The translations under genes and the position numbers were made by a program. The notes beneath the pieces are model-generated. The model ran no database searches, was not told the origin of the DNA, and saw only the letters and a program-made list of their open reading frames with translations. From a virus (lineage: Duplodnaviria; Heunggongvirae; Uroviricota; Caudoviricetes), in the IMG/VR virus record IMGVR_UViG_2595698394_000001, positions 81,866 through 145,865 of that record: a DNA stretch of 64,000 nucleotides; one strand, given 5' to 3'. Positions 2,816 through 48,798 of the stretch are shown here, one piece after another. Numbering within the stretch: the stretch's first letter is position 1; each line of letters opens with the position of its first letter.

Positions 2816-2817
2816 TC

Positions 2818-3162
2818 TTATTTTTTATATGTTCCTACTATTTGCCTTGACTCTCTTTCTCTTTGTCTTTCCTCCATCCAATGTAAAGCTTCTTGTAACT
2901 TTGTTATGGCCGTAGCACTTTCTCTTGAAGGAACTAAAGAGTTTTTAAACTTTAAGTCCTCAATCATCATTGAAAGTAAGGTCTCATGAAGAATACCATC
3001 TACTTTGTCTACTGCCTCTTCTTTTAACCTAGATCCTCTTACAAATCTAATAACTTGAGATACTCCAGGAACTTCTTGAATACCTTTTCCTTCTACTATT
3101 GTCCATATAGGAAGCTCATAATGAGTTCCTACCTCTACTGTTTTAAATTCTCTTTTACTCAT
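2818..3162 (-). CDS. Hypothetical protein (114 aa)
   Basis: ORF track; start and stop abut neighbours. Confidence 0.5.
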   Translation of the reverse strand: MSKREFKTVEVGTHYELPIWTIVEGKGIQEVPGVSQVIRFVRGSRLKEEAVDKVDGILHETLLSMMIEDLKFKNSLVPSRESATAITKLQEALHWMEERQRERESRQIVGTYKK

Positions 3163-3782: not shown

Positions 3783-4242
3783 TCTCTTTATTTTGTATTT
3801 CTGCTATTTTACTCCACAACCTATCTGGATTTCTAGTTACATTTACATTAAAGTCTAGTTTCTTTTTAAGTTTCCTTTTTAGTAAGTAGATAAAAGGTTT
3901 TTTAGTATACTTTGTATTATGTTTCTTATCTTCTGGTAATGTTTTTATAAACTCCTCCAGAATATTTTTTCTGGGTCTAAATATGGTCTCAGACCAAATT
4001 TTATACTCTTTTACTGGGCTTTTTTCTTTATCTTTTATCTCAGTGCCTAGCTTCCACAAGTTACAGTATAAGGTTCCTAAATTTTTTCCTACATATATGC
4101 TAGTTGTTTTAGGATCTTTAGCTTTAGATTTAATAAAAGCTATATCTAATTTTATGATTTCTTCAACTTCTTTATAATCTAGACCCAGTTCCTTTGATAC
4201 TTCATCAATCAACTCTTCATGAAACTTAACAGCTGTATCCAT
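3775..4242 (-). CDS. Hypothetical protein (155 aa)
   Basis: ORF track; overlapping start and stop with neighbours. Confidence 0.55.
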   Translation of the reverse strand: MDTAVKFHEELIDEVSKELGLDYKEVEEIIKLDIAFIKSKAKDPKTTSIYVGKNLGTLYCNLWKLGTEIKDKEKSPVKEYKIWSETIFRPRKNILEEFIKTLPEDKKHNTKYTKKPFIYLLKRKLKKKLDFNVNVTRNPDRLWSKIAEIQNKENE

Positions 4243-4661
4243 TACTTACTTTTTTTAAACTCTAAAACAAGAACTTTAGTTTTGTCTGCCATAAAAGAAT
4301 CAACCATCTCTTTTAACTCTTTATCTACATAGCCCTTAGTCTTATTCCTGGACTCTGCTTTCAAGTACCCTTTTGTTCTTAGGTTAGAATTAGTAGTATT
4401 TATTTGGTTATCATTCTTCTTAAGTCTTTTCTTAGCTTCTTCTTTAGTCTCTTTTGAAAATCCGAAAAGGCAATAATAAATTAGTAACTCCTTTTCAAAA
4501 GGAAGTATTCTATCATCTTCTGCTTTATTTGTTATAGAGTATATAGATATCAATTTATCTACAAAATCTATGTCGTTTTTATACTTAACATCACATCTAT
4601 ACATTTTACCTGTAATGGCGATAAGCGTATTTTTGTAGTAATTCTCATCTTTTATACCCAC
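4242..4661 (-). CDS. Hypothetical protein (139 aa); first gene of the leftward operon
   Basis: ORF track; divergent intergenic region 4662-4828 upstream. Confidence 0.55.
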   Translation of the reverse strand: MGIKDENYYKNTLIAITGKMYRCDVKYKNDIDFVDKLISIYSITNKAEDDRILPFEKELLIYYCLFGFSKETKEEAKKRLKKNDNQINTTNSNLRTKGYLKAESRNKTKGYVDKELKEMVDSFMADKTKVLVLEFKKSK

Positions 4662-4774
4662 TGTACTTAGTTTTAAGAGGCAAACTTACAAAAATAAAAC
4701 GACTTTAACAAATATTTTACAATATATATTTTGTTTTGTAGTTTTAATTTTGTATGTGACCTAATTTTATTTAA

Positions 4775-4808
4775 TATCTTTGGCTATGTTATGCTATTAT
4801 TGTAGCTT
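4775..4808 (+). promoter_or_regulatory. Bacteroidetes-type promoter (TTTG-N20-TAgcTTTG) for the rightward genes
   Basis: tcTTTGg..(20 nt)..TAGCTTTG immediately upstream of ATG 4829. Confidence 0.4.
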
Positions 4809-4828
4809 TGTCAAAAACCTAGAGTACT

Positions 4829-5104
4829 ATGAAAAAATTAGATTACCATGAATTTTATGAGTACATATGGATGTCCGAGGACTTTGTAGATGTAATCTCA
4901 GACAATTTCATTGATGCTGAAGAAGAATTTATACGAGAGTTTACTCTACAACTGTGGAGATTATATGATTTGAAATTTGAAAGTAATGATCCTTTATCTT
5001 CAAGCTCTATTAAAAGAGTTTTTAGTATATTATTTTCAAGTTTAGCTTTGTTCACCCCGAAGTTAGAAAGTTTAAAACCTATATCTGATAAAGGGAGATT
5101 TTAA
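4829..5104 (+). CDS. Hypothetical protein (91 aa)
   Basis: ORF track; followed by a hairpin+T terminator. Confidence 0.5.
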   Translation: MKKLDYHEFYEYIWMSEDFVDVISDNFIDAEEEFIREFTLQLWRLYDLKFESNDPLSSSSIKRVFSILFSSLALFTPKLESLKPISDKGRF

Positions 5105-5124
5105 TTGATTGTTTTATTAGTATA

Positions 5125-5155
5125 ACCCTGTAATTAATAGTTACAGGGTTTTTAT
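5125..5155 (+). terminator. Rho-independent terminator
   Basis: accctgtaa-ttaatag-ttacagggt hairpin followed by TTTTTATTT. Confidence 0.6.
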
Positions 5156-5163
5156 TTATATAA

Positions 5164-5195
5164 TTTGTTTTATCCAATTATTTGTTGTATGTTTG
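5164..5195 (+). promoter_or_regulatory. Bacteroidetes sigma-A type promoter (TTTG-N20-TATGTTTG), copy 1 of a 38-nt repeat
   Basis: aaTTTG..20 nt..TATGTTTG; an identical 38-nt block recurs at 6102-6140. Confidence 0.5.
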
Positions 5196-5294
5196 CCAAA
5201 TGAAAATACAACGTTTACATTTACAAGAGCTAGAACAGCCGATTATATCGGGAGGTACTGGTGTGTAGATGAATCATTTTCATTAAAGCATTTA

Positions 5295-5327
5295 AAGCCT
5301 CTCATTAATTTGGGAGGCTTTTTTATT
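5295..5327 (+). other. Leader hairpin + T-run immediately 5' of tRNA-Pro
   Basis: agcctc-tcattaatttgg-gaggct followed by TTTTTTAT, 4 nt before the tRNA start. Confidence 0.5.
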
Positions 5328-5330
5328 TTA

Positions 5331-5407
5331 CGGGTAATAGAGGAGTCTGGTTTATCTCGCTGCATTTGGGATGCAGAGCACGCAGGTTCGAATCCTGCTT
5401 ATCCGAC
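5331..5407 (+). tRNA. tRNA-Pro (TGG)
   Basis: Cloverleaf by hand: acceptor cgggtaa/ttatccg, anticodon loop tttggga, T-arm gcaggTTCGAATcctgc. Confidence 0.7.
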
Positions 5408-5486
5408 AAGTAGACTGTTATTAATTCATAGAGGACACGTACAGTAGCTTAATGCGAGATCGGTATGTCCAGCATAGAATTAACCT

Positions 5487-5558
5487 GCTGCCATCGTCTA
5501 ACGGCTAGGACCTCAGGTTTTCATCCTGGTAATCGGAGTTCGATTCTCCGTGGCAGTA
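5487..5558 (+). tRNA. tRNA-Glu (TTC)
   Basis: Acceptor gctgcca/tggcagt, anticodon loop ttttcat, T-arm cggagTTCGATTctccg. Confidence 0.65.
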
Positions 5559-5629
5559 CAGAATCTTAAGTTTAGGCTGAATTTAAGCGTTGAGTTGCTT
5601 CTCATAACAAGTACGTTAAGCTTGTATAC

Positions 5630-5702
5630 TGGAATATGGTGTAATTGGTAACACGTCTGGTTTTGGTCCAGAAGAGTGGGGGTTCGAGACCCTCTATTCC
5701 AA
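5630..5702 (+). tRNA. tRNA-Gln (TTG)
   Basis: Acceptor tggaata/tattcca, anticodon stem tctgg/ccaga, loop ttttggt, T-arm gggggTTCGAGAccctc. Confidence 0.7.
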
Positions 5703-5704
5703 CT

Positions 5705-5778
5705 GTGTTAGAAGCTAAAGTGGTCGAAGCGTCTGGTTGTGGTCCAGAAGATAGTGAGTTCGAGTCTCATTTAACACC
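5705..5778 (+). tRNA. tRNA-His (GTG)
   Basis: Acceptor gtgttag/ttaacac, anticodon loop ttgtggt, T-arm gtgagTTCGAGTctcat; no encoded G-1. Confidence 0.65.
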
Positions 5779-5837
5779 CTATGTTCATTTAAAACTAATG
5801 TTCAGTGTACATGAACATCTATAAATTGTGAACACAT

Positions 5838-5912
5838 GCAGAGGTGGGTAAACTGGTAAAGCCGCCCGATTTAGGATCGGGAGTTCTGAGGGTTCGACTC
5901 CCTCTCTCTGTA
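5838..5912 (+). tRNA. tRNA with anticodon TAG (Leu codon CUA) but a short, type-I variable loop; identity uncertain
   Basis: Acceptor gcagagg/tctctgt (2 G-U), anticodon stem cccga/tcggg, loop tttagga, T-arm gagggTTCGACTccctc. Confidence 0.5.
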
Positions 5913-5919
5913 CTTATAT

Positions 5920-6000
5920 GCCCCAATGGTGAAACTGGTTATACACGTAGCACTTAAAATGCTATGCTTAGGCTTGCAGGTTCGATCCCTGCTTGGGGTA
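5920..6000 (+). tRNA. tRNA-Leu (TAA), type II
   Basis: Acceptor gccccaa/ttggggt, anticodon stem tagca/tgcta, loop cttaaaa, 11-nt variable arm, T-arm gcaggTTCGATCcctgc. Confidence 0.65.
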
Positions 6001-6005
6001 CAAAT

Positions 6006-6078
6006 TTTCTCATAGTTTAACTGGAAAAACACAGAGTTACGGCCTTTGAGAGTAGGGGTTCGAGTCCCTTTGAGAAAA
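6006..6078 (+). tRNA. tRNA-Arg (ACG)
   Basis: Acceptor tttctca/tgagaaa, anticodon loop ttacggc, T-arm aggggTTCGAGTccctt. Confidence 0.6.
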
Positions 6079-6105
6079 CTTTATATACAAAAATAATTTA
6101 GATAA

Positions 6106-6137
6106 TTTGTTTTATCCAATTATTTGTTGTATGTTTG
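6106..6137 (+). promoter_or_regulatory. Bacteroidetes-type promoter, copy 2 of the 38-nt repeat
   Basis: Same TTTG-N20-TATGTTTG block as 5164-5195. Confidence 0.5.
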
Positions 6138-6269
6138 CCAAGAATTTAAAAAGATAAAAGTGCAACTAACAAAAACAGGCATAACAGTTATTGATAAAAC
6201 CAAGGGAGCGAGAGCTTATCTAGGGGATACTGTTATTGGCTAATTTTTAGTTAATTCAAATATAACAGA

Positions 6270-6299
6270 AACCCTCCTAGAAATAGAGAGGGTTTTTTC
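6270..6299 (+). other. Leader hairpin + T-run 5' of a tRNA
   Basis: accctc-ctagaaataga-gagggt + TTTTTT, 6 nt before tRNA 6305. Confidence 0.5.
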
Positions 6300-6304
6300 A
6301 TTAT

Positions 6305-6377
6305 GGCCCAGTAGCTAAACTGGCTTAGCACCTCCTTTGCAAGGAGAAGTATGTGGGTTCGAGCCCCATCTGGCCCA
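6305..6377 (+). tRNA. tRNA-Ala (TGC)? The 3:70 pair is C:C rather than the G:U Ala identity element
   Basis: Acceptor ggcccag/ctggccc (one mismatch), D-arm gcta/tagc, anticodon loop tttgcaa, T-arm gtgggTTCGAGCcccat. Confidence 0.5.
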
Positions 6378-6459
6378 CTAAAATTAAAACTATGGAAAAT
6401 ATTAGAGTATTTTGTAAACAGAATTAATTACCTTCGTTTAACTAATGAGGGTAACAACT

Positions 6460-6531
6460 ACCCTCGTAGCTTAATGGCAAAGCTCCTCTCTTTTAAAGAG
6501 GCGACCGCAAGATCGGTACTTGTCGGGGGTA
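6460..6531 (+). tRNA. tRNA-Lys (TTT) with a non-canonical T-loop (ATCGGTA)
   Basis: Acceptor accctcg/cgggggt, anticodon stem cctct/agagg, loop cttttaa. Confidence 0.55.
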
Positions 6532-6546
6532 CAAAAATTAGAAAAT

Positions 6547-6831
6547 ATGAAATTTAAGTTTATATTTAGGGCTTTAAAGTATCAACTACCTTTGGAAAGA
6601 TTACTTAGAAATTTTTTTATAACTGGTAATGGTTGGGGTATGTTTAGTGTACATGCCCATGTAAATAAAAAAGGAAACCCTAAAGTTGGATATAACACTT
6701 TGGAGACAGCATTAAAATCCGCTAACAGCATGCAAAAAAAGAACGGATTTCACTATTCCTCTTATATGTGTCCTAGGTGTGGAAAGTTTCACTTAGGTAA
6801 AAACAGAGATAGTATTAACAAAGGAATATAG
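6547..6831 (+). CDS. Small zinc-ribbon protein (94 aa; ...YMCPRCGKFHLG) embedded in the tRNA array
   Basis: ORF track 6520..6831 trimmed to the internal Met (MKFKFIF); CPRC...H motif; overlaps tRNA-Ile start by 10 nt. Confidence 0.35.
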   Translation: MKFKFIFRALKYQLPLERLLRNFFITGNGWGMFSVHAHVNKKGNPKVGYNTLETALKSANSMQKKNGFHYSSYMCPRCGKFHLGKNRDSINKGI

Positions 6832-6895
6832 CTCAGTTGGTTAGAGTACTTCGCTGATACCGAAGATGTCACAAGTTCGAATCTTGTTATTCCTA
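6822..6895 (+). tRNA. tRNA-Ile (GAT)
   Basis: Acceptor aggaata/tattcct, D-arm gctc/gagt, anticodon stem cttcg/cgaag, loop ctgatac, T-arm acaagTTCGAATcttgt. Confidence 0.7.
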
Positions 6896-6999
6896 CTATA
6901 AGCCTTATCGGGTTAAGGGAAGAGTCACCTGCATTCTTGGTAACAAGATAAAACCTTTAAAAGAAAGACTACACGATAGGAAGAGGTTGCCTATCATTT

Positions 7000-7073
7000 G
7001 CAGCAATCGCATAGCGGCCTATTGCACCTGACTTCCAATCAGGATCTCGTGAGTTCGAATCTCACTTGCTGCA
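7000..7073 (+). tRNA. tRNA-Gly (TCC)
   Basis: Acceptor gcagcaa/ttgctgc, anticodon stem cctga/tcagg, loop cttccaa, T-arm gtgagTTCGAATctcac. Confidence 0.75.
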
Positions 7074-7078
7074 CAAAT

Positions 7079-7152
7079 AGCGAGGTAGAGCAGCTGGTTA
7101 GCTCGCTAGGCTCATAACCTAGAGGTCGGGAGTTCGAGTCTCCCCTTCGCCA
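7079..7152 (+). tRNA. tRNA-Met (CAT), elongator-like (or Ile2); 1:72 is A:C
   Basis: D-arm gagc/gctc, anticodon stem ctagg/cctag, loop ctcataa, T-arm gggagTTCGAGTctccc. Confidence 0.65.
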
Positions 7153-7231
7153 CAAAAGTCGCCCTATGTGTGAAAGCAGCATAGGTTAAGGAGCCTGTAC
7201 ACCTCCAGCAGTTAAGCGACAACTGCTTTAA

Positions 7232-7304
7232 AGTCTATCGGTCCAGTGGAGTGGACGCTGCCCTGTCACGGCAGAGATCACGGGTTCGAGTCCCGTATAG
7301 ACTG
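7232..7304 (+). tRNA. tRNA-Asp (GTC)
   Basis: Acceptor agtctat/atagact, D-arm gtcc/ggac, anticodon stem ctgcc/ggcag, loop ctgtcac, T-arm acgggTTCGAGTcccgt. Confidence 0.75.
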
Positions 7305-7383
7305 CTAAGAGTAAAGAAACGTGATTAAGATAGGATGCCAGCTATGCTGAAGCACTAATACGCTAAAACTTTACTCTTTTTAT

Positions 7384-7457
7384 TCCCTACGTAGCTCAAT
7401 TGGTGGAGCACTGGTTTTGTAAACCAAAGGTTGTCGGTTCGAGTCCGACCTAGGGAT
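7384..7457 (+). tRNA. tRNA-Thr (TGT)? One extra nucleotide at the acceptor/D junction
   Basis: Acceptor tccctac/ctaggga (6 of 7 pairs), anticodon loop tttgtaa, T-arm gtcggTTCGAGTccgac. Confidence 0.55.
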
Positions 7458-7604
7458 CAAAATACACCTCTCGTGAAGTTTTGAAGTGTATTATAAGGTG
7501 AATGCGAAAATACTTTGCTAGCTTTGGGTGGGACATCTACACATGCAACAAAGGACAACTGTTTAGACAACCAGGTATTTTCTGTAAAGCCCACCACCTT
7601 TTTT

Positions 7605-7678
7605 ACCAGATTAGCTCAGGGGTTTAGAGCAACTCTTTTACAAGGAGAAGGTCGATAGTTCGAATCTATCATTTGGTA
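7605..7678 (+). tRNA. tRNA-Val (TAC)
   Basis: Acceptor accagat/atttggt, D-arm gctc/gagc, anticodon loop tttacaa, T-arm gatagTTCGAATctatc. Confidence 0.65.
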
Positions 7679-7689
7679 CTTTATTTTAT

Positions 7690-7762
7690 GGGGGATTAGT
7701 TTAACTGGAAAAACTATAGGCTTCTATCCTATCGAGTAGGGGTTCGAATCCCTTATCCCCTT
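7690..7762 (+). tRNA. tRNA-Arg (TCT)
   Basis: Acceptor gggggat/atcccct, D-arm gttt/aaac, anticodon stem atagg/cctat, loop cttctat, T-arm aggggTTCGAATccctt. Confidence 0.7.
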
Positions 7763-7772
7763 CAATATTTAT

Positions 7773-7846
7773 GGCCTTGTAGCTCAGTTGGTTAGAGCAG
7801 CTCACTCATAATGAGAAGGTCTCAGGTTCGAGTCCTGACTAGGCCA
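7773..7846 (+). tRNA. tRNA with CAT anticodon (Met or lysidine-Ile2), second CAT tRNA
   Basis: Acceptor ggccttg/ctaggcc (one mismatch), D-arm gctc/gagc, anticodon loop ctcataa, T-arm tcaggTTCGAGTcctga. Confidence 0.65.
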
Positions 7847-8025
7847 CAGCATAAATAATAATTAATATATTTGGTAGTTCCATTTATATTTTGTAGTATT
7901 GCAGTATGAAAACAAATTATTGTACATATAACAATTCCAATTGGTCGTTTAGTTACGACACAGGATCGGTATGTACTCTAGGCAGTGATGGATTAATAGG
8001 TTAATTCATTTATAAAGTATATAAA

Positions 8026-8060
8026 GATCCTGTTACGAAAGTAACGGGATTTTTTATTTT
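8026..8060 (+). other. Leader hairpin + T-run 5' of tRNA-Tyr
   Basis: atcctgttac-gaaa-gtaacgggat + TTTTTTATTTT, ending 1 nt before tRNA 8061. Confidence 0.5.
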
Positions 8061-8144
8061 GGGACGGTTGCTCGGCTGGAAGAGGCGCAGGACTGTAAAT
8101 TCTGTAATCCACTAGGAATGGAGGTTCGAGTCCTCCTCGTCCCA
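8061..8144 (+). tRNA. tRNA-Tyr (GTA), type II
   Basis: Acceptor gggacgg/tcgtccc, anticodon stem cagga/ttctg, loop ctgtaaa, ~15-nt variable arm, T-arm ggaggTTCGAGTcctcc. Confidence 0.7.
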
Positions 8145-8243
8145 CGACTACTAAAACAGGTGTAGGTAAGAACTTAAGATAACTTACTTATATGCGGTAC
8201 TTATGTAAAAGAAAACTGTTGGTGTGCCGAGTTGTTTTATAAG

Positions 8244-8331
8244 GAAGGTGAATGAATCGTTGGGATGAGCCTGGTCTTGAAAACCAGTGGAGGTTTAAAA
8301 GCCTTGGGGATCGTGCCCTCCGTCTTCCGCA
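8244..8331 (+). tRNA. Degenerate tRNA-Ser(TGA)-like element, possibly a pseudogene
   Basis: Anticodon arm ctggt-cttgaaa-accag and acceptor gaaggtg/cgtcttc can be paired, but the D- and T-arms are non-canonical. Confidence 0.25.
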
Positions 8332-8414
8332 AGTGCATTATAAAGCACTATAAAGTGTAATGGGTAAGATTTTTCCCAAATATACATAAATTAGTGCCTT
8401 ATATTGCACATTAT

Positions 8415-8501
8415 AGAAAGGTGTCAGAGTGGCTTATTGAGCTAGGTTGCTAACTTAGTGGAGTGAAATACCTTCCGTGGGTTCGAATCCCATCCTTTCT
8501 T
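8415..8501 (+). tRNA. tRNA-Ser (GCT), type II
   Basis: Acceptor agaaagg/cctttct, 3-bp D-stem with a long D-loop, anticodon stem ctagg/cttag, loop ttgctaa, long variable arm, T-arm gtgggTTCGAATcccat. Confidence 0.7.
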
Positions 8502-8531
8502 CTACATATCGCATATCGCAATATGGAATAT

Positions 8532-8619
8532 TCTTGAGTTGCCGTAGTTGGCCGAACGGTCCAGACTGTTAATCTGGTGAGATTTATCTCCATCGTAGGT
8601 TCGAATCCTACCTCAAGAG
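8532..8619 (+). tRNA. Type-II (long variable arm) tRNA carrying anticodon GTT (Asn codon AAC); atypical
   Basis: Acceptor tcttgag/ctcaaga (perfect), anticodon stem ccaga/tctgg (perfect), loop ctgttaa, 17-nt variable arm with gagat/atctc stem, T-arm gtaggTTCGAATcctac. Confidence 0.5.
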
Positions 8620-8763
8620 CTTAGTATAAACTGTGGGTTTACTTGCAGAAGAACAGTCGAAAGTAGAGTGTCCAAAGCTCGTGTTCTTTACCTACCGAGG
8701 GGTTTTGCGTTCAGCGTAAAATTGACCCAAAAGGAATATCGGTTAGCAAGGATACTTTTATAT

Positions 8764-8836
8764 ACTTGAGTAGCTCAGTTGGTAGAGCAGTGGTCTCCAA
8801 AACCAAAGGTCGTAGGTTCGAGTCCTACCTCTCGTG
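8764..8836 (+). tRNA. tRNA-Trp (CCA) with two mismatches in the acceptor stem
   Basis: D-arm gctc/gagc, anticodon loop ctccaaa, T-arm gtaggTTCGAGTcctac; acceptor acttgag vs ctctcgt (pairs 3:70 and 4:69 mismatched). Confidence 0.5.
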
Positions 8837-8858
8837 CTAGTGTGTAACACTATACAAC

Positions 8859-8932
8859 GGGGTTGTAGCTGAGTTGGTACAAGCGTCCGATTGAAGCTCG
8901 GAAGTACGAAGGGTCGAAGCCTTCCTTCCCCA
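8859..8932 (+). tRNA. tRNA-Phe (GAA) with two acceptor mismatches and a G54 T-loop
   Basis: Anticodon stem tccga/tcgga, loop ttgaagc, T-arm gaaggGTCGAAGccttc; acceptor ggggttg vs cttcccc (5:68 and 6:67 are T:T). Confidence 0.5.
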
Positions 8933-8987
8933 CAACGTTGCTTATTAACCACTAAAGTTAATGTTTTGTTTATAATAAGCAACAAAT

Positions 8988-9061
8988 AGTGCTGTGCCTG
9001 AGTGGTCCAAAGGAGATGATTGCAAACCTGAAAATCGTCGGTTCGAATCCGACCAGCACCT
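8988..9061 (+). tRNA. tRNA-Cys(GCA)-like; the ttgcaaa loop is present but the anticodon stem pairs poorly
   Basis: T-arm gtcggTTCGAATccgac, acceptor agtgctg/cagcacc, loop ttgcaaa identical to the canonical Cys loop; only ~1 Watson-Crick pair in the stem. Confidence 0.4.
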
Positions 9062-9090
9062 CTAAATATTTACAATCTACGCACTTTTTA

Positions 9091-9122
9091 CTTGCATATG
9101 TCATTTATTTTTTTTACTTTTG
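9091..9122 (+). promoter_or_regulatory. Promoter-like element (cTTG-N20-TACTTTTG) within a 22-nt repeat ttgcatatgtcatttatttttt
   Basis: Repeat shared with 9731-9752; the -7 box matches TAnnTTTG. Confidence 0.4.
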
Positions 9123-9269
9123 ACATGGCGGGTAGCAGTTACAAGTCGCTATTGTTTCTGTGAATGGTAATATTATATTCTAAAGTCCCTTTAAGCAAAT
9201 AACGTTTAAGACTTAAAATCTTTAAGATCCATGATATTTAAAGAGAGTTCGATTCTCTCCCTGCTATCT

Positions 9270-9386
9270 GGAGTTATAATAGTGTGAATACTAGTTGGCA
9301 TGGATTAGGGTGCAACTTGTAAAACTTAATAGTCTTTTTAAGATGTTTCTTTTTACTTTCCACAGGTTCGATTCCTGTTAACTCTA
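9270..9386 (+). ncRNA. Over-length tRNA-like element (117 nt): good acceptor and T-arm, irregular core
   Basis: Acceptor ggagtta/taactct with T-arm acaggTTCGATTcctgt, but ~45 extra nt between the D-region and the T-arm; a T-arm+acceptor remnant gagagTTCGATTctctc-cctgcta lies immediately upstream (9243-9267). Confidence 0.25.
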
Positions 9387-9572
9387 CATAGTCTCCTTCA
9401 CCGATAAGTAGCTCTTTGAAACAGATTACTTATAATTATCCCTGAGTGAGAATCAGGTTATTTAATTATATAGGTGAAGTAAAACATTCACAGTGAGAGA
9501 ACCGTTAGTTGTGGCATTTTATGCTATAAACGAGCAAACGTCATACTCACTGTGTTTTTATTTTAAGAAGAT

Positions 9573-9725
9573 ATGAAAAGAAGTAAAAAACGATGGAACT
9601 GGACAAATAAATTTAAACGTAAGACATTAAGTCAAGGAAGGCGTAAATGCAAATGCAATTGGTGTCTCAGTATTGAATGGAGAAATAGAAAAAGAATAAC
9701 TGTTAAAAAAGATTTAGAATTATAA
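9573..9725 (+). CDS. Small, highly basic Cys-containing protein (50 aa)
   Basis: ATG..TAA frame translated by hand as MKRSKKRWNWTNKFKRKTLSQGRRKCKCNWCLSIEWRNRKRITVKKDLEL; below the ORF-track cutoff. Confidence 0.3.
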   Translation: MKRSKKRWNWTNKFKRKTLSQGRRKCKCNWCLSIEWRNRKRITVKKDLEL

Positions 9726-9729
9726 GTAA

Positions 9730-9761
9730 TTTGCATATGTCATTTATTTTTTGTACGTTTG
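9730..9761 (+). promoter_or_regulatory. Bacteroidetes-type promoter (TTTG-N20-TACGTTTG), second copy of the 22-nt repeat
   Basis: aTTTGcatatgtcatttattttttg-TACGTTTG. Confidence 0.45.
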
Positions 9762-9762
9762 C

Positions 9763-9882
9763 GGTTCGCTGAGTTTTATTTCTTCTTAATTGATAAATAA
9801 TCTTAAGGGTCCGTAAAAAGACTTATTAAACCTACCTAGGAAGAATTGGCTCAGCGGCTTTGAAAACGGGTAGGTTTTTTTG
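9763..9882 (+). ncRNA. Candidate small RNA (~120 nt) bounded by a promoter and a terminator, no ORF
   Basis: Promoter 9730-9761, then ~70 nt, then hairpin aacctacc...gggtaggtt + TTTTTTT (9828-9882). Confidence 0.35.
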
Positions 9883-10443
9883 TGCTTAAAATTGACGTAA
9901 TAACTTCGAACCGAAAGGGGAGTCAGGCCAAACAGAATCGTAACGGAGAACTGTGGTCTTTACGGGTTTAGTAACTGCACCTTTGGAATAATAAGGATAA
10001 ATAGTGGTGATGTTTGAAGAGGAGGTGAAATCTTCTCGCAATCCGATAAGTTGAAAGTCTAAGGATATAAAAGAGTAAGAGCTTAGCTCTACTAAAGTAG
10101 GAATAACGAAACTACTTTTTTGGTGAGGCCGTAAGGCAAAAACGGCTCTTTTAGAAACCACAGATAAAATCTAATAAGCTGAAAATCAAGTAATTATGAT
10201 TTTTGGTTCTGGACGTGTTCTGTCTGATTGTCAAGGTATTTTAATAGCCTGTCTCTTACTCTTGTGGGTGTTATCTATTTATATTCTACACCTAATAATT
10301 CCCCGAAAGTATTTAGATAACACCTCGTAACCACAGCAATCTAGCTAAATAGATTACACTAGTACTAGGTATTTTGGAATAGTCGTATTTTGTTTAAAAA
10401 TAATTGCTTAAACATTTGGTTTTCTGGTATTTAAGTACTAAAT

Positions 10444-12000
10444 TTGTCTATGACAAAAAATGTAACTATGGGGTTAACTCCTTTTCCAAGACAAGCTATA
10501 GCTATAAGTAAACAAGTCGCTTTTTTAGAAAGTGGTACTACCAAAAAGGGAATATTCGTGTATCCTGTTGCCTTTGGGAAATCTGTTGTTATTGCTAATG
10601 TAGCTCAAAAATTTCCTAACAAGTACTTTATAAACATTTGCCCTAATAAAGAACTTACTGATCAGAACTATAAAAAATTTATTTCTTATGGTTATGAGGC
10701 AGCAGTTTGTTGTGCTTCATTAAATAGAAATGAAATAGGTCAAGTTACTTTTGCAACCATTGGGACTTTAAAAAAACATTTAAATTTCTTTAAGGATAAG
10801 GAAGTAGTTATTTTAGTAGATGAGTGCCAGAACCATTCATTGAAAGGATCCTCCTTGCACACTTTTATCCAGTCAATAAAAAAAGTATTTGTTTTAGGTA
10901 CTACTGCAACTCCTCTAAGGTTAAAATCAGGAATGGGTGGAAGTGAGCTTAGAATGATGAACAGCTACAGAGATTGTTTCTACTCATCTATTGAAGATGT
11001 TGTGCAAATTAGTGAAGTAGTTGCAAATAAAAGGTGGTCGAAACTTATCTATGAGGTAGAGGATATAGATGAGTCATTTTTAAAACTTAATACTACTGGA
11101 ACTGAATATACTGTTTCCTCGTTAAAAGTTTTCTCAGAAAAAAACAATATTTTAGATAAAGCTAAAATTGCTGTAGAAAAACTTATAGCAGAAGGTAGAA
11201 AATCTATCCTAGTTTATATGCCTTTTATAGAAGATGCTGATGCACTAGGCGCAAGTATTGAAGGCTCTGTAGTTTTACACTCAAAAGTATCTGATAGAGT
11301 TAGATTCGATGCAATAGAAGGTTTTAAGTCAGGAAGAATAAAAGTACTGATAAATTGTTTAATTCTTGTTGAAGGGTTTGACTATCCAGAATTATCCTCT
11401 ATAGTAATGTGCAGACCTACTAACTCTATAAATCAGTACTACCAGGCATTAGGAAGGTTAACTAGAGTACATAAAAACAAAAATGACGGTAAGGTTATAG
11501 ATATCTCTGGTAACTTTAACAAGTTTGGTAAGATAGAGGATATTACTTTTGAGAATGAGGAGTGGTGTGGTGGATGGGCAGCTTTTTCTGGAGAAAGGTT
11601 ATTGACAAACTATCCTTTAAACAGTAAAATAGTTCCTACAAAACAGTCTTTAATAGAAGACTACGAAAGGAAGCTTAGAAAAGAGGATCCACTAGACCCT
11701 GTATTTAATTTTGGACAATACAAAGGTAAAAGTTTATTATCTCTGTTAAAAGATAAGACTTATGATTTCAAGTTTAAAATGACAGTAGGGGATAGGGTTG
11801 AAAGTTATATAAATTGGATAGTACAAGAAGATGCCAAAGGGAAATTCTCTTTTTATGGAGAATCAGGGGAAAAACTTAAAAGAGGTATTTACCAGCATTT
11901 AAAACTGCCAATGCCTAATAACAGTAAAAATGTTATAAGTACTACCATAGAAGAAAAACCTGTGACAAGAAATAGTTTAGGCTTCATTGTACCCTTTTAA
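10444..12000 (+). CDS. Superfamily-2 DEAD/DEAH-type helicase
   Basis: Walker A AFGKS, motif II VDECQN, motif III GTTATP, motif VI QALGRLTR. Confidence 0.7.
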   Translation: MSMTKNVTMGLTPFPRQAIAISKQVAFLESGTTKKGIFVYPVAFGKSVVIANVAQKFPNKYFINICPNKELTDQNYKKFISYGYEAAVCCASLNRNEIGQVTFATIGTLKKHLNFFKDKEVVILVDECQNHSLKGSSLHTFIQSIKKVFVLGTTATPLRLKSGMGGSELRMMNSYRDCFYSSIEDVVQISEVVANKRWSKLIYEVEDIDESFLKLNTTGTEYTVSSLKVFSEKNNILDKAKIAVEKLIAEGRKSILVYMPFIEDADALGASIEGSVVLHSKVSDRVRFDAIEGFKSGRIKVLINCLILVEGFDYPELSSIVMCRPTNSINQYYQALGRLTRVHKNKNDGKVIDISGNFNKFGKIEDITFENEEWCGGWAAFSGERLLTNYPLNSKIVPTKQSLIEDYERKLRKEDPLDPVFNFGQYKGKSLLSLLKDKTYDFKFKMTVGDRVESYINWIVQEDAKGKFSFYGESGEKLKRGIYQHLKLPMPNNSKNVISTTIEEKPVTRNSLGFIVPF

Positions 12001-44586: not shown

Positions 44587-45338
44587 TGGCCAGAGCAAAA
44601 ATAGTATTACCCAGTATCTTAACAAAAGACAGTTGGTTTTATAAAGAAAACAAAGATATATGTGATCCACATTTAGGTAAACCTTATATTTCTTATTCAA
44701 CATCAACCTCTTGGATAAGTTATAGAGAAGATTTGATTAAGCAAAAGTTTGCTAAAATTAAATTAGATGCCAAAAAACTTTATGCCGAGTTAGGTAATTA
44801 CTTAGGGGAAGCAGTAGAAAATGGTAAGTTTGGAGAGAACCCTAATCAATTTACAGGGCAAGAGAACTTTAGGCTTATACCAAGACCAGAAGGTGCTGAG
44901 TATGAAAAAATGATCTTAATTGATATGGGAGACTATATAATTTTAGGATTCATTGATATTTTCTTAGAAACCTCAGAGTTTGAACTTCCAGAGAAAGTAG
45001 GAGGTAAAACTAATGTTAAGGTAGCTGTAGCCAATGTACAGGATTTAAAGACTGGAGGTAAGAAAAAAGAAGATGAGTATGCTTCAGAAGACTATACACA
45101 AGTTATCTTGTATGCCAAAGCTTTAGAGAATAGAGGGTATAAGATAGGAAAAACAAGTGTTTGGTTTGTTCGTAGAACAGGGAGTCATATAAACCCTCCT
45201 TTACATATATCAGATGAACAGTTTGAAATTCCTTTAGAGTATAATGAGGCTAGAGTTGACTTTGCACTAAAAAAGATAGATAAGTCAGTTAGAGAAATAT
45301 CTGACTGTTATAAAACGTACCTTAAGTTTTTTGGATAA
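44586..45338 (+). CDS. Possible PD-(D/E)xK nuclease (250 aa)
   Basis: ILGFIDIFLE...ELPEK D...E.K pattern; weak. Confidence 0.3.
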   Translation: MARAKIVLPSILTKDSWFYKENKDICDPHLGKPYISYSTSTSWISYREDLIKQKFAKIKLDAKKLYAELGNYLGEAVENGKFGENPNQFTGQENFRLIPRPEGAEYEKMILIDMGDYIILGFIDIFLETSEFELPEKVGGKTNVKVAVANVQDLKTGGKKKEDEYASEDYTQVILYAKALENRGYKIGKTSVWFVRRTGSHINPPLHISDEQFEIPLEYNEARVDFALKKIDKSVREISDCYKTYLKFFG

Positions 45339-45495
45339 TGGATGAGGATATAATTAAGTATATATTTTATAGGTTAGTAGTTTTGGTTCTTATTTTATGC
45401 TCACTAATATTTGCAGCAGGATATTTTTTAGGACAACATTAACATATACTTCCAAATAAAAGAGTACCTTTGACAAAGAAACCAATAGCAACAAA

Positions 45496-45669
45496 ATGAA
45501 CAAAAGTGTAAAAGCAATAATTTTAACAGGGTTGGCAGTAATTTTTGCAATAGGTGCTCTTATTGGAGTATGTATTTGTTTAGCAGCAGAAAATCTTAGG
45601 TTAGGTTGGATAACAACAACCTTTGCAGTATTAAGTGGGGTAACACTCTTATTAAAAAATGAAATATAA
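45496..45669 (+). CDS. Small 2-TM membrane protein (57 aa)
   Basis: Hand translation MNKSVKAIILTGLAVIFAIGALIGVCICLAAENLRLGWITTTFAVLSGVTLLLKNEI; below the ORF-track cutoff. Confidence 0.4.
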   Translation: MNKSVKAIILTGLAVIFAIGALIGVCICLAAENLRLGWITTTFAVLSGVTLLLKNEI

Positions 45670-45840
45670 ATGGAAACAAGGAGCAAATTATTGAAGTATT
45701 TACTGTATATTTGTCAGGCAATAGCAGTAGCGTACATAGCTATGTACATGTTTAGATCGGATTACCCCTTTTTAGTGGTTCCTCTTATTATTGGAGTAGC
45801 GATTGTATTAATTTTAGTTTTAACAAGAAAAAAGAAGTAA
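45670..45840 (+). CDS. Small 2-TM membrane protein with a basic C-terminus (56 aa); holin-like topology
   Basis: METRSKLLKYLLYICQAIAVAYIAMYMFRSDYPFLVVPLIIGVAIVLILVLTRKKK; abuts the upstream stop and the downstream ATG. Confidence 0.4.
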   Translation: METRSKLLKYLLYICQAIAVAYIAMYMFRSDYPFLVVPLIIGVAIVLILVLTRKKK

Positions 45841-45843
45841 AGA

Positions 45844-46623
45844 ATGAAAAAGTTTATTGGATTATTATTAGTAGCATCAGTTTTTATGTCATGTAACAGG
45901 CCAGAGCCTAACTATGAAGGGGTGCTAATGACAGATTACGGTAGAAATGGCATAGAGTCATTTAAAGTAGTAACAGGAGCACAAGGCCCTTTAGGACCAG
46001 GATCAGAGTTGTATGAAGTTCCTATGTGGGAGCAAAAAGGAGATCCTAGAGTTGTAGAAATTTCTGCAAAAGATGCTGGAGTGTTTACAGTGGATCCTGC
46101 CTACACTTATATTCCTATTAGAGGTAAAGGACCTGAAATTGTGTTAGCTTATAAAAATTATAATGTAAATAACCCTAACTCTTTCTTTGAGTCAGTTGAG
46201 GAAAATGTAATTAATAAAAGGGTGACAGACGCTTACAGAGAAGAAGCTAGAGGGTACACGACAGACTCTTTAATGAATAATTTAACAGGTTACGAGAATG
46301 CAGTACAAAACAGATTAAAGAAGGAGTTTAATTCTAAGTACTTTGAGTTGACTACACTTACCTCAGGATTAAAACCACCAAAGTCTATGGCTGACGCTAT
46401 TGAAAGAAGAAATAGGTCAATACAAGAAGCTAATGAGGTAGAGAATCAGTTAAGGACTGCTGAAATGTTATTACAGAAAGCCACTATTGACGCTGAAACT
46501 AATAGAGTGTCTTCTTTAGGGTTAACAAAAGAAATTTTAACAGCTAGGTATATTGAAGCTCTTAGAAATTCTAAGAATAGAATAATTATAACAGATGGCA
46601 AGACTCCAGTAATTTTAAATTAA
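45844..46623 (+). CDS. SPFH/band-7 (stomatin/prohibitin-like) lipoprotein
   Basis: Lipobox VFMSCN; C-terminal ...TARYIEALRNSKNRIIITDGKTPVILN typical of the SPFH family. Confidence 0.55.
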   Translation: MKKFIGLLLVASVFMSCNRPEPNYEGVLMTDYGRNGIESFKVVTGAQGPLGPGSELYEVPMWEQKGDPRVVEISAKDAGVFTVDPAYTYIPIRGKGPEIVLAYKNYNVNNPNSFFESVEENVINKRVTDAYREEARGYTTDSLMNNLTGYENAVQNRLKKEFNSKYFELTTLTSGLKPPKSMADAIERRNRSIQEANEVENQLRTAEMLLQKATIDAETNRVSSLGLTKEILTARYIEALRNSKNRIIITDGKTPVILN

Positions 46624-46743
46624 AATGAGTGTTCAATCAGATTACAAGGCAATAAAAGACTTCAGTGGTGATTGGAGTAAATCTCTAAGAGAGAAATACA
46701 ACATGACAGAGGAAGAAGTATTAAATAACATAGAACTATAAAA

Positions 46744-47727
46744 ATGAAACAATTTAAAATTATTACAGCTATAATGCTGTTAAGTGTATTTACAGTTAGT
46801 GCCCAAGAGTATTCTAAGTCATCTATCCAAGTAACAGCAGGAGGAACTAAAATACAAGACATAACATCAGTTGAGCTTTTTAATGTTGACTTAGCTTATA
46901 GGTATATGGCTAATACAAAGTTTGGAGCAGAAGTAAACGTAAATTACACGTCTATTCCTGATTATACTACTAAGTATTACACTGCTGGGTTACATGGTGT
47001 AGTGAATGTAGGTAGAGTATTAGGTTTTGAGTCTTTCTCTAAAGATTATACCATCTTAGCAGGGCTTGGAGGGACTTATTCAGACTCTAATGATCCTACT
47101 AATATTTTAGTTTATCATAGAAAATCGAACTTCCATGTGTCTTGGTTTATAGATAATGAGTTTAGGTTAAATAACACTTTATTTTTAAAAGCTGGATTAG
47201 ATGTAATAACAGATGTTAATCATAGACCATTTACAACTGGGCTAAACTCTGAGACAACTAACATAATAAACTTCAATGTAGGAGTAGTTATTAACTTAGG
47301 TAAAAAAGAACATGCCGATTGGCATATTCCAGAAGTAGTTACTAACACTATTGTTGAAAAACATTTTACTACAGTTGAACAACCTATTGATAGAACTATT
47401 ACTAACTATTATCCAGAGAAGGATAACACAGAGTATGTATACTTTGCCAATGATAGTTTTAATATTACACAAGAAGGTTATGATAACATTGAGAACATAG
47501 CTTCAACTAAGGCTCAAATGATATACATTGATGCTTATTGTTCTAATGTAGGTACAGTAGATTATAATAAGACATTAGCAAAGGCTAGAGCTACTGCTAT
47601 TAAATTCTATTTGTTAGAATTAGGTGTATCGGAAGATAGAATAGAAATTACTGCACATGGTATAGATAATAATAGGTCATATAAGATACCTGAATTAGCT
47701 AGACGTGTAGTATTAAGAGCAGAGTAA
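46744..47727 (+). CDS. OmpA-family protein: signal peptide, beta-rich N-terminal region, C-terminal OmpA peptidoglycan-binding domain
   Basis: Signal LLSVFTVSAQE; C-terminus NKTLAKARATAIKFYLLELGVSEDRIEITAHG matches the OmpA_C consensus. Confidence 0.55.
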   Translation: MKQFKIITAIMLLSVFTVSAQEYSKSSIQVTAGGTKIQDITSVELFNVDLAYRYMANTKFGAEVNVNYTSIPDYTTKYYTAGLHGVVNVGRVLGFESFSKDYTILAGLGGTYSDSNDPTNILVYHRKSNFHVSWFIDNEFRLNNTLFLKAGLDVITDVNHRPFTTGLNSETTNIINFNVGVVINLGKKEHADWHIPEVVTNTIVEKHFTTVEQPIDRTITNYYPEKDNTEYVYFANDSFNITQEGYDNIENIASTKAQMIYIDAYCSNVGTVDYNKTLAKARATAIKFYLLELGVSEDRIEITAHGIDNNRSYKIPELARRVVLRAE

Positions 47728-48110
47728 AAATATAAACTCTTTGTTCAAAGATGAGCATCATACTCAGATTGGTAACTCCTCTGCTTAGGCATGAAACTGA
47801 GAGTCCCTGTAAACTGTATCAGCAGTTGTGTTTATTCGAGATGTATAAAGTGAGACGTTTTCTGCAACTAAGTGCCCAAATGAGACACGCAGATTTATAT
47901 CCAGACTGATATTCTGGCGAAGAGTTTTTAAAACAGTAGGTAGCATATTAGGTTTAATGCGTTTACTAAGAATGGAAGCCTATACCTGAATGCGTGTATA
48001 ATGTACTAAAAAGCGCTAGTATGGTTAGTTTTTGTTTGGTGTATAGGTCTTGGTAGCTCCTTGACTGATAAGAGAAGGAGGGTTCGAGCCCCTCTCCTGC
48101 TACTATAATT

Positions 48111-48413
48111 ATGAGTTGTACCTTAAACAACTGTTTTACTAATTTAAAATTAAGATTGATGGCGACAAAAGTAAGGCTGTTTATATGTACTAAAGGTAAT
48201 GGTAGGGGAATATTTGAAGGTCAAACATTAGAAATTTATGGTTCTATGTTTATGATGCATGGTTACTATATATCTCATATTAAAACATATAAAGACTTTT
48301 ATAATAGTACATCTAAATGGAAAGAGGTAAGGACTATAAAAGATTTAACTGAGGAGGAAAGAAATAGTGTGTATATAAAGAGATTATTTCTAGAACATAT
48401 TCCTGTAGTGTAA
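48111..48413 (+). CDS. Hypothetical protein (100 aa)
   Basis: ORF track. Confidence 0.45.
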   Translation: MSCTLNNCFTNLKLRLMATKVRLFICTKGNGRGIFEGQTLEIYGSMFMMHGYYISHIKTYKDFYNSTSKWKEVRTIKDLTEEERNSVYIKRLFLEHIPVV

Positions 48414-48435
48414 ATTATAACTAAAACTAAGACCA

Positions 48436-48798
48436 ATGGGCACATTAAAAGAAAAGAAATTATTTTACAGGGTAGTAAATGATGATAGTAAAGAAGGATT
48501 GTGGTATAACTATTCTGGGGAGTTTCATGGTAATATTCATGATAAATACTCATTTTGTTTGAATAACGAATTAAAAATGCCATTTGATGAAAATGTAGTT
48601 GGGTGGTTATCAACTGCTGATACATTAGAATCTTTATTCCAATGGTTTCCTAAAAAAGATATAGTAGAGTTACAAAACCATGGCTTTAAATTATATTTGT
48701 TTGAATCTGAAGAATATAAAATGTATAAGAATCATTGGATTATCAAACAAGATTCAGCTAAAATTATAGGGGGTATTAAAATATACAATCATGATTAA
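48436..48798 (+). CDS. Hypothetical protein (120 aa)
   Basis: ORF track. Confidence 0.5.
   Translation: MGTLKEKKLFYRVVNDDSKEGLWYNYSGEFHGNIHDKYSFCLNNELKMPFDENVVGWLSTADTLESLFQWFPKKDIVELQNHGFKLYLFESEEYKMYKNHWIIKQDSAKIIGGIKIYNHD

Follow-up and report, generated by a model that had tools for sequence, protein, structure and literature searches.

Among the described SPFH (Band 7) systems, the HflK/C-FtsH complex (PDB 7vhq, 7wi3, 9cz2) combines an SPFH domain, a wall helix, a roof helix and a C-terminal cap in a membrane-fencing cage, with the bulk on the periplasmic side of the inner membrane; mitochondrial prohibitin, a eukaryotic hetero-oligomer of PHB1 and PHB2 (8rrh, 9o9z, 9unl), carries an N-terminal hydrophobic anchor without a lipobox; and in the SPFH-NfeD operons, such as that of Escherichia coli QmcA-YbbJ (8z5g), an SPFH gene is accompanied by a gene for a small membrane protein. 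Phage-encoded SPFH proteins are already known as the PHROG 200 family, and both the SPFH and the OmpA annotations of the locus analyzed here are present in GenBank. A 2026 paper describes the reason for the presence of SPFH lipoproteins in phages as unclear (PMC13239085), and in the literature that we searched, no functional study of these proteins or of N4 gp19/gp20 turned up, nor did any mention of a conserved partner with two transmembrane (TM) helices. Here we analyze a compact membrane/envelope gene cluster of the marine Cellulophaga phage phi4:1, contained in a 64,000-nucleotide stretch of DNA (hereinafter, the window; positions 81,866 to 145,865 of the IMG/VR record IMGVR_UViG_2595698394_000001), and describe its new feature, namely, a lipid-anchored SPFH scaffold (gp165) with a minimal, non-NfeD, two-TM membrane partner (gp164). 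The explanation that we favor, with a probability of roughly 0.4, is that the two proteins form an SPFH cage with a TM partner that would act on a conserved client.

The segment 44500-48200 of the window is 100% identical to phi4:1 (KC821632.1, 145,865 bp, genus Lightbulbvirus), the 64-kb window being the end portion of this record (window position = record position − 81,865), and the open reading frames (ORFs) of the cluster correspond, with 100% identity, to the GenBank coding sequences gp163 to gp167. A sister phage, phi17:2, matches the cluster stretch with 98% identity. The cluster is located on the + strand, between genes for a PolB-type 3'-5' exonuclease, a PD-(D/E)XK-like exonuclease and ribonucleotide reductase. 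The initial annotation of this DNA listed four genes, all of which are present where they had been placed, but overlooked gp166, so that the cluster consists of five ORFs. The view of the cluster as a single module is valid in the physical sense, in phi4:1, but not in the evolutionary sense: the cluster resolves into the gp164-gp165 pair, a mobile gp167 and lineage-specific small ORFs, and judging by sequence comparison, the pair is its evolutionary core.

The SPFH lipoprotein gp165

The gp165 gene (45844..46623, + strand) encodes a 259-aa protein that matches the Pfam Band_7 domain (PF01145; E = 9.1e-9, 36 bits against a cut-off of 23.6 bits) and, over residues 4-255, the PHROG 200 family 'lipoprotein' (E = 8.5e-37). 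The protein begins with a lipoprotein signal, MKKFIGLLLVASVFMS-C, in which VFMS-C17 is the lipobox, so the SPFH lipoprotein that had been recognized from the nucleotide sequence is confirmed. The signal peptide with the lipobox Cys17 is followed by the SPFH domain (residues 24-173), a 45-residue helix (180-224), a second helix (229-242) and a conserved C-terminal tail; the lipobox anchor stands where SPFH proteins have an N-terminal TM helix. Cys17, together with the segment C-x-R-x-x-P-N-Y-x-G-V, is invariant in 41 aligned homologues (30-79% identity).

An AlphaFold2 (AF2) model of gp165 built on this 41-sequence alignment (mean predicted local distance difference test score, pLDDT, of 79.5) displays the whole architecture of the cage-forming proteins: SPFH domain, long coiled-coil helix, second helix and C-terminal segment. 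In a Foldseek comparison of this model with the PDB, prohibitin is the best match (human, 8rrh; E = 8e-12, TMq 0.58, ~275 aligned columns), and the other full-length matches are stomatin, HflK/C with FtsH, erlin, QmcA-YbbJ, flotillin and vault, all at 13-18% identity. A sequence profile of the family, when compared with the PDB sequences, yielded only coiled-coil noise and no solved structure, and a search of NCBIfam produced no match for gp163, gp164 or gp165.

The gp165 model shares with HflK/C (Foldseek E = 1e-9 to 1e-7) the SPFH domain, the wall and roof helices and the C-terminal cap, and for gp165, a periplasmic position of the bulk and the fencing of membrane by a cage are predicted. 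Unlike HflK/C, which consists of two paralogues, the phage cluster and all related loci contain a single SPFH gene each; furthermore, gp165 has a lipid anchor instead of the N-terminal TM helix and is accompanied by an extra two-TM mini-protein, and the identity is only 13-18%. The likeness to prohibitin extends to nearly equal length (272 vs 259 aa) and the same domain order, although prohibitin differs in its eukaryotic, mitochondrial and hetero-oligomeric nature and its type of anchor. With QmcA-YbbJ (QmcA: Foldseek E = 5.5e-8), the phage pair has in common the adjacency of an SPFH gene and a gene for a small membrane protein; unlike NfeD, however, the phage partner is a protein of only ~50-75 aa, and gp164 consists of two TM helices with no NfeD/OB-fold (no Pfam match above noise). 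QmcA faces the cytoplasm; gp165, by contrast, is predicted to be exported.

At the sequence level, the gp165 family is isolated, with 227 clusters (50% identity) of 1.84 billion retrieved at E <= 1e-3. The phi4:1 branch comprises 936 clusters at 90% identity, with many members at ~71% identity, from Capnocytophaga-type prophages and large phage contigs. The LoVEphage branch (gut Bacteroides) includes 2,069 clusters at 90% identity, for a total of ~3,000 in the two Bacteroidota branches together; a single LoVEphage-type cluster holds 1,933 sequences from gut metagenomes. PHROG 200 covers all SPFH proteins that we compared (ten comparison proteins matched). Its members N4 gp20, phiE125 gp43, phiCbK gp180 and the Vi01-like 'SPFH band 7 lipoprotein' share with gp165 the lipobox, the motif after the Cys and an upstream gene for a small TM protein, although the gp165 branch (Bacteroidota phages) is only ~26% identical to the enterobacterial branch.

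One relative stands out by its host: the SPFH lipoprotein of Leptolyngbya phage Lbo-JY46, for which a cyanobacterial host is assigned (3866-4648 of the segment examined), is 62.5% identical to gp165 at the protein level and 65% at the DNA level, far closer than that of any other named phage, which suggests either that the gene was transferred horizontally or that the assigned host should be re-checked.

A conserved two-helix partner of the SPFH lipoprotein

The gene immediately upstream, gp164 (45670..45840, + strand; identified as an ORF, by hydropathy and with the partner model described below), encodes a 56-aa hairpin of two TM helices with the turn MFRSDYPFL between them and a basic tail, TRKKK, in the C-terminal sequence LTRKKK. 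We built a hidden Markov model (HMM) of the partner from nine partner ORFs of other phages, with gp164 left out, and ran it against 397 ORFs of the window. This partner HMM finds gp164 with E = 1.9e-9, the next best ORF of the window being at E = 0.008; gp163 (E = 0.3), a negative control, and gp162 (E = 0.37) are both unmatched. Of the 61 ORFs on the + strand of the window that are 40-80 aa long, only 5 contain two hydrophobic segments, and gp163 and gp164 are among the five.

The sample of SPFH loci that we examined consists of 29 lipoprotein-type PHROG 200 loci, 21 of the Bacteroidota type (crAss-like phages, LoVEphage/BI-TP1, Capnocytophaga-type contigs, a ~305-kb contig, IMG/VR contigs and Lbo-JY46) and eight from phages of Proteobacteria. 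A small two-TM ORF is located upstream of the SPFH gene in 27 of the 29 loci (counting Cronobacter phage GAP31, where it is one short ORF away), and in 28, a small TM ORF directly adjoins the SPFH start or runs into it, the exception being GAP31. In the Bacteroidota-type loci, the association is uniform: all 21 contain a two-TM ORF of 48-75 aa whose end is at -17 to +40 nt relative to the start codon of the SPFH gene. The gaps or overlaps between the two genes amount to a few nucleotides, which we take as support for translational coupling of the pair. Several of the partner ORFs are unannotated in GenBank, for example, Lbo-JY46 3697-3879, cr128_1 2799-3002 and BI-TP1 2844-3017 (coordinates of the segments examined).

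In the closer branch of partners, the turn conforms to the motif F-[RE]-S-[DE]-x-P-[FY]-L, which is common to gp164 (F-R-S-x-x-P), whereas the proteobacterial partners possess a different turn motif, P-x-[LM]-[IVM]-S-[AM]-[KL]-[DS] (P-x-L-I-S-A-K-D in the enterobacterial branch), along with the basic tail. In E. coli phage Cyrano, the gene order is RecA, a 66-aa two-TM protein and the SPFH lipoprotein. With the Cyrano SPFH protein as the query, 413 phage records were matched, and in the sample drawn from these, the same pair was found in a Stx2a-converting phage, the N4-like phage Jura (gp19/gp20, which carry the names of N4 gp19/gp20), Aeromonas phage Gekk3-15 and Burkholderia phage phiE125 (gp44/gp43). 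By these comparisons, gp164 and gp165 appear to be of the same type as gp19/gp20 of coliphage N4. Comparison with phi17:2 reveals two synonymous and no non-synonymous differences in each of gp163 and gp164, seven synonymous and two non-synonymous differences in gp165, and complete identity of gp166; purifying selection on the small ORFs gp163 and gp164 is thus weakly supported.

Genomic context, expression and detection by mass spectrometry

In every lineage examined, the pair is co-oriented with and embedded among replication and recombination genes, the neighbors being RecT, DUF1351, RecA, exonucleases, Holliday-junction resolvase, HKD nuclease, methylase or DnaB. The pair is probably expressed with the block of replication and nucleotide metabolism genes, before the late genes, that is, with early or middle timing. 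Sites of a Bacteroidetes-type promoter, TTTG-N17-21-TAnnTTTG, are overrepresented in the window (13 vs 3.5 expected), and a scan for sigma-70-type promoters detected no enrichment (28 sites vs 37.5 expected). The sites of the Bacteroidetes-type motif (4681-10446, 20194, 50819 and 53627) are concentrated in the tRNA region and where the divergent strands meet; those at 5164 and 6106 are 32-nt identical copies. The tRNA region itself (5331-8933) is a cluster of 22 tRNA genes; the 'tmRNA*' reported by ARAGORN at 8054-8715 spans tRNA-Tyr, tRNA-Ser and tRNA-Asn and is probably an artefact.

The placement of genes for periplasm-facing membrane proteins among replication-type genes is compatible with superinfection exclusion or envelope protection; superinfection exclusion or envelope remodelling was another of the functions initially considered. 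In this scenario, the cage and the hairpin, perhaps with gp163 and gp167, would alter the envelope of the infected cell, so that later phages are barred from DNA delivery or progeny are spared loss on debris, in the manner of T4 Imm/Sp and T5 Llp. In T4, imm and sp are early genes for small membrane proteins and have replication genes as their neighbors, and the T5 protein Llp is a lipoprotein; moreover, in phi4:1, the pair is packed together with three other envelope or small proteins, including the OmpA-like gp167. The likeness of gp163 and gp164 to Imm/Sp, as well as to class II holins, consists in small size, inner-membrane location, two TM helices and charged termini, but does not extend to sequence similarity, and gp164 is tied to the SPFH gene. 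The phage pair shows no sequence kinship to known exclusion proteins in Pfam, PHROG or PADLOC, and the PADLOC run on the cluster gave no match to a defense system (the best being MkoB, E = 0.018). Furthermore, exclusion systems are usually specific to a phage or a receptor, whereas the pair is conserved in phages that infect Alpha-, Beta- and Gammaproteobacteria as well as Bacteroidota, a distribution that speaks for a universal target. In addition, the OmpA-like gene is unlinked to the pair anywhere else. On balance, we regard exclusion as unlikely.

The gp165 protein is produced in phi4:1: it carries the GenBank note 'part of structural virion based on experimental MS/MS proteomics' (tandem mass spectrometry, MS/MS) and is the sole product flagged in this way among ~125 + strand, non-structural genes. 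Taken at face value, this note would make gp165 a genuine virion component delivered with the particle, and indeed, SPFH lipoproteins have been detected by mass spectrometry (MS) in preparations of two other phages, Sajous1 (PMC10892097) and RisingSun (PMC6034870). However, the latter sample was a crude lysate; the gp165 gene is far from the structural module; and the Sec/SPII signal with the invariant Cys implies export from the cytoplasm, the site of virion assembly in tailed phages. An HflK/C-like protein of a Pasteurella multocida prophage, possibly one of another family, was reported from outer-membrane vesicles (PMC9872710), which suggests co-purifying membrane. Because gp165 is a Sec-exported lipoprotein, we interpret the flag, by analogy, as probable co-purification of membrane material, and a role as a virion component seems hardly credible.

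Proposed assembly of gp164 and gp165

In each of the partner proteins, Lys and Arg crowd both termini and are few in the turn, so that, under the positive-inside rule, an N-in/C-in topology is predicted. The conserved turn would accordingly be exposed in the periplasm, on the same side as the exported SPFH domain. As helical TM proteins, the small partners can reside only in the inner membrane. In the SPFH homologues from E. coli phages Cyrano and Stx2a and from Burkholderia phage phiE125, position +2 after the lipidated Cys is occupied by Asp, the classical Lol-avoidance signal under the '+2 rule' that causes inner-membrane retention in E. coli. From the Asp+2 of the proteobacterial homologues, the helical TM partners and their predicted topology, we infer that the gp165 assembly faces the periplasm on the inner membrane; for Cellulophaga, this is an extrapolation because residue +2 of gp165 is Asn.

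Under the proposed mechanism, gp165 would, after export, receive a lipid at Cys17 that anchors it in the inner membrane, in the periplasmic leaflet, and would oligomerize through the long helix and the C-terminal tail into a ring- or dome-shaped cage, as do prohibitin, stomatin and HflK/C. The N-in/C-in hairpin of gp164 would be inserted in the same membrane, with its sole conserved part, the periplasmic turn, touching the SPFH domain, and would provide in trans the TM 'fence' that canonical SPFH proteins have in cis. Together, the two proteins may corral a patch of the inner membrane that contains a conserved client. Such a client should be universal because the pair spans phages of hosts as distant as Bacteroidota and three classes of Proteobacteria, and the leading candidate is a membrane protease of the FtsH type because prohibitin and HflK/C both enclose FtsH-family proteases. 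Sequestering of FtsH would then alter the turnover of membrane proteins in the infected cell. Of the functions suggested for the cluster at the outset, a membrane microdomain scaffold is the best supported, given the cage-former architecture of gp165, with cage formation itself as a deduction from that architecture. The parts of this explanation differ in strength: the architecture, an inner-membrane, periplasm-facing SPFH cage with a TM fence supplied in trans, is reasonably probable on the basis of the model, whereas FtsH as the client is a guess by analogy that we consider doubtful.

Several observations weigh against this explanation. The FtsH-client idea is purely analogical, and no FtsH-related gene is linked to the module. 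The pairing is not perfectly uniform: the ORF upstream of the SPFH gene has one TM segment in Pseudomonas phage TL (gp11) and three in Caulobacter phage phiCbK (gp181), and in GAP31, a 54-aa ORF separates the two-TM partner from the SPFH gene. The SPFH proteins of phages FL-1 and Atuin contain a TM hairpin of their own at the N-terminus, without a lipobox and without a separate small TM gene. We considered these hairpins as gene-fusion proof of contact between gp164 and gp165 but downgraded this argument, the predicted orientation being opposite to that of gp164; they suggest, rather, alternative solutions for anchoring. The rules of lipoprotein sorting in Bacteroidota are not established, and with Asn at position +2, location of gp165 in the inner leaflet of the outer membrane is possible. 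The timing of expression is deduced from gene position only, and no Bacteroidetes-type promoter site was detected between positions 44,626 and 50,819, with none inside the cluster, which is consistent with read-through from upstream. Finally, the virion MS flag is unexplained for a Sec-exported lipoprotein.

Lysis genes and the cluster

A holin-like or lysis-timing function was one of the initial suggestions for the cluster. In this case, gp163 and/or gp164 would act as holin- or pinholin-like proteins, with the SPFH cage as an antiholin-like restraint that brings about lysis inhibition and determines the moment of membrane permeabilization. The predicted features of gp163 and gp164 include the traits of class II holins (two TM helices, although the second is weak in gp163, N-in/C-in topology and a charged C-terminus), and gp164, with about 56 aa and a basic C-terminal tail, fits this class. 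The T4 gene rI exemplifies a lysis regulator encoded far from the lysin. No lysin turned up in the window, in agreement with the initial annotation, which had noted none near the cluster and proposed a search for an endolysin elsewhere in the genome. Such an enzyme is indeed encoded outside the window: gp058 (record 70349-70978), an N-acetylmuramoyl-L-alanine amidase (PHROG 435, E = 1.2e-44; Amidase_3, E = 1.9e-28), belongs to the minus-strand late structural module.

The candidate lysis cassette occupies positions 69643-71810 of the phi4:1 record, on the minus strand, and consists of gp060, gp059 (cupin), gp058 and gp057. The gp060 protein has one TM segment, a coiled coil and a weak match to Rz-like spanins (E = 0.005); gp057, which is MS-flagged as structural, has an N-terminal TM segment and a long coiled coil. 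Next to the amidase, no canonical multi-TM holin and, in a regular-expression search, no o-spanin lipoprotein was found, and only the single-TM coiled-coil proteins gp057 and gp060 are present there, which counts in favor of lysis timing. However, the SPFH cluster is ~57 kb away from the endolysin, on the opposite strand, among replication genes, and neither gp163 nor gp164 matches any holin family in Pfam (E <= 1) or the PHROGs (E <= 0.01). Across the ~29 loci, the partner co-varies with the SPFH gene and never with a lysin: the gp164 homologues travel with the SPFH gene in replication and recombination modules, including those of Stx and N4-type phages, which have their own lysis cassettes elsewhere. 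We therefore judge lysis timing to be decidedly improbable, the topology of gp164 notwithstanding. The suggestion of a spanin-like system is not supported: at 259 aa, gp165 is far bigger than an o-spanin, and it has no C-terminal hydrophobic segment and no match to a spanin PHROG. By gene content and context, the gp163-gp167 unit does not appear to be a lysis cassette.

The OmpA-like protein gp167 and the segment downstream

The last gene of the cluster, gp167 (46744..47727, + strand), encodes a 327-aa OmpA-like outer-membrane protein, in accord with the original assignment of an OmpA domain: it matches Pfam OmpA (PF00691; E = 1.7e-13), and its signal peptide, of the SPI type (VSA|QE), is followed by an 8-stranded beta-barrel (residues 26-184), a disordered linker (200-225) and an OmpA_C domain (229-326). 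With the AF2 model (mean pLDDT 78.9) as the Foldseek query, the full-length E. coli OmpA model 9a2m comes first (E = 1e-10), the barrel matches include Ail, OmpX, NspA and the OmpA TM domain, and the C-terminal domain matches those of Pal and OprF, with a root mean square deviation of about 3 Å and 27-29% identity (28% for Pal). Thus, gp167 shares with E. coli OmpA/Pal the signal peptide, barrel, linker and OmpA_C domain; unlike these proteins, it is phage-borne, and the nearest relatives from cells show 21-39% identity. Throughout the 15-member gp167 family, Ser267 replaces the Asp of the canonical G-x-T-D motif, and Arg282 is invariant; from the alignment and general knowledge of OmpA-like domains, we take these positions to be the canonical peptidoglycan-binding Asp and Arg. 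Ligand binding by gp167 may be altered by the Asp-to-Ser change.

The gp167 family consists of 15 clusters and includes gp002 of the crAss-like Cellulophaga phage phi14:2 (46% aa identity), a protein from an uncultured phage contig and a chromosomal copy (37%) that adjoins yidC and clpB. A close, host-derived origin of gp167 was considered but not found: in species-representative genomes, the relatives are only 21-32% identical, with none in Cellulophaga, in a scan with a single peptide pattern that was not exhaustive. In phi14:2, the phage contig and the chromosome alike, the OmpA-like gene occurs without an SPFH gene, and no OmpA-like neighbor was found at the other SPFH loci examined. For these reasons, gp167 seems to be an independent, horizontally mobile accessory gene that is adjacent to the pair here by chance.

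The same observations bear on the possibility that the whole cluster encodes an integrated trans-envelope complex, in which the inner-membrane hairpins, the SPFH lipoprotein and gp167 would span the periplasm. The tight packing of gp163 through gp167, with intergenic gaps of just 0-3 nt and larger gaps on either side of the block (53 nt on the 5' side and ~380 nt on the 3' side), is compatible with such a complex, as is the prediction that all these proteins except gp166 belong to the envelope. Nevertheless, with the OmpA-like family and the SPFH genes found apart from each other in the other genomes examined, and with gp162, gp163 and gp166 matching only small, unannotated PHROGs and having no counterpart in other lineages, we consider an integrated complex of this kind very unlikely.

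The gp167 gene is followed by a conserved segment (47728..47909) that overlaps the annotated gp168 and was delineated by comparison with phi14:2 and phi17:2. The first ~115 nt past the gp167 stop codon are ~92% identical to the counterpart region of phi14:2, compared to ~72% identity of the coding region; outside phi4:1, this segment was found only in phi14:2. The annotated gp168 (47751-47909) shows no differences from phi17:2, and all four codon differences from phi14:2, as read from the alignment, are non-synonymous, so that gp168 is probably not a gene. The segment may mark the boundary of the OmpA-like cassette. We also considered a structured RNA in this segment, an idea that is unsupported: there is no Rfam match, the predicted fold is not stable (z = +0.42), and the segment is present in a single copy in the window. 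The Rfam scan by E-value covered positions 45200-48500 and returned no matches throughout. Within the ~380-nt gap after gp167, the sequence GGAGGGTTCGAGCCCCTCTCCTGCTAC (48060-48106) resembles the 3' half of a tRNA, with a T-arm-like stem-loop; neither ARAGORN nor Rfam made a call for it, and a tRNA remnant and a scar left by integration at the edge of the cassette are both conceivable.

Lineage-specific small ORFs

The remaining ORFs of the locus are short, and each has a sole full-length match to a PHROG with no annotated function. The gp163 gene (45496..45669, + strand; PHROG 31221) encodes a 57-aa membrane protein. The initial annotation described gp163 and gp164 alike as small two-TM proteins; by hydropathy, this holds for gp164, with two clear segments, whereas gp163 has one strong segment (residues ~4-34) and a weaker second one (39-53). 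At some other SPFH loci, an unrelated second TM protein is encoded at the position of gp163. The 34-aa single-TM protein gp162 (45338..45442, + strand; PHROG 36344), encoded just 5' of the cluster, had been overlooked previously. The gp166 gene (46625..46741, + strand; PHROG 34020) encodes a 38-aa acidic, soluble protein; we considered this ORF as a conserved partner of the OmpA-like gene and rejected it, finding no counterpart in phi14:2 or in another OmpA-like locus (L034). No counterparts of gp162, gp163 or gp166 were seen in other lineages, and all three are likely to be lineage-specific additions.

Implications

SPFH 'lipoproteins' rank among the commoner unexplained accessory genes in tailed phages. 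The finding that they form a fixed pair with a two-helix membrane protein, which is tiny and in many cases missing from the annotation, replaces an imprecise label with a system of two defined components. The present comparison also corrects the interpretation of the phi4:1 cluster as a lysis cassette and sets apart the OmpA-like gene as a mobile accessory gene, of a type that is common to the unrelated Cellulophaga phages phi4:1 and phi14:2. Because members of the pair are present in tractable E. coli phages (N4-like phages, Stx2a and Cyrano), direct testing is feasible. In its broadest form, which we put forward tentatively and consider rather unlikely to hold in full, the proposal is that the pair is an unrecognized, near-universal two-component host-takeover module of the phages of diderm bacteria, a self-assembling, lipid-anchored periplasmic SPFH nanocage that obtains its TM fence from a separate mini-protein and captures a conserved machine of the inner membrane, such as FtsH. 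If so, this nanocage would rewire membrane proteostasis or integrity in the course of infection.

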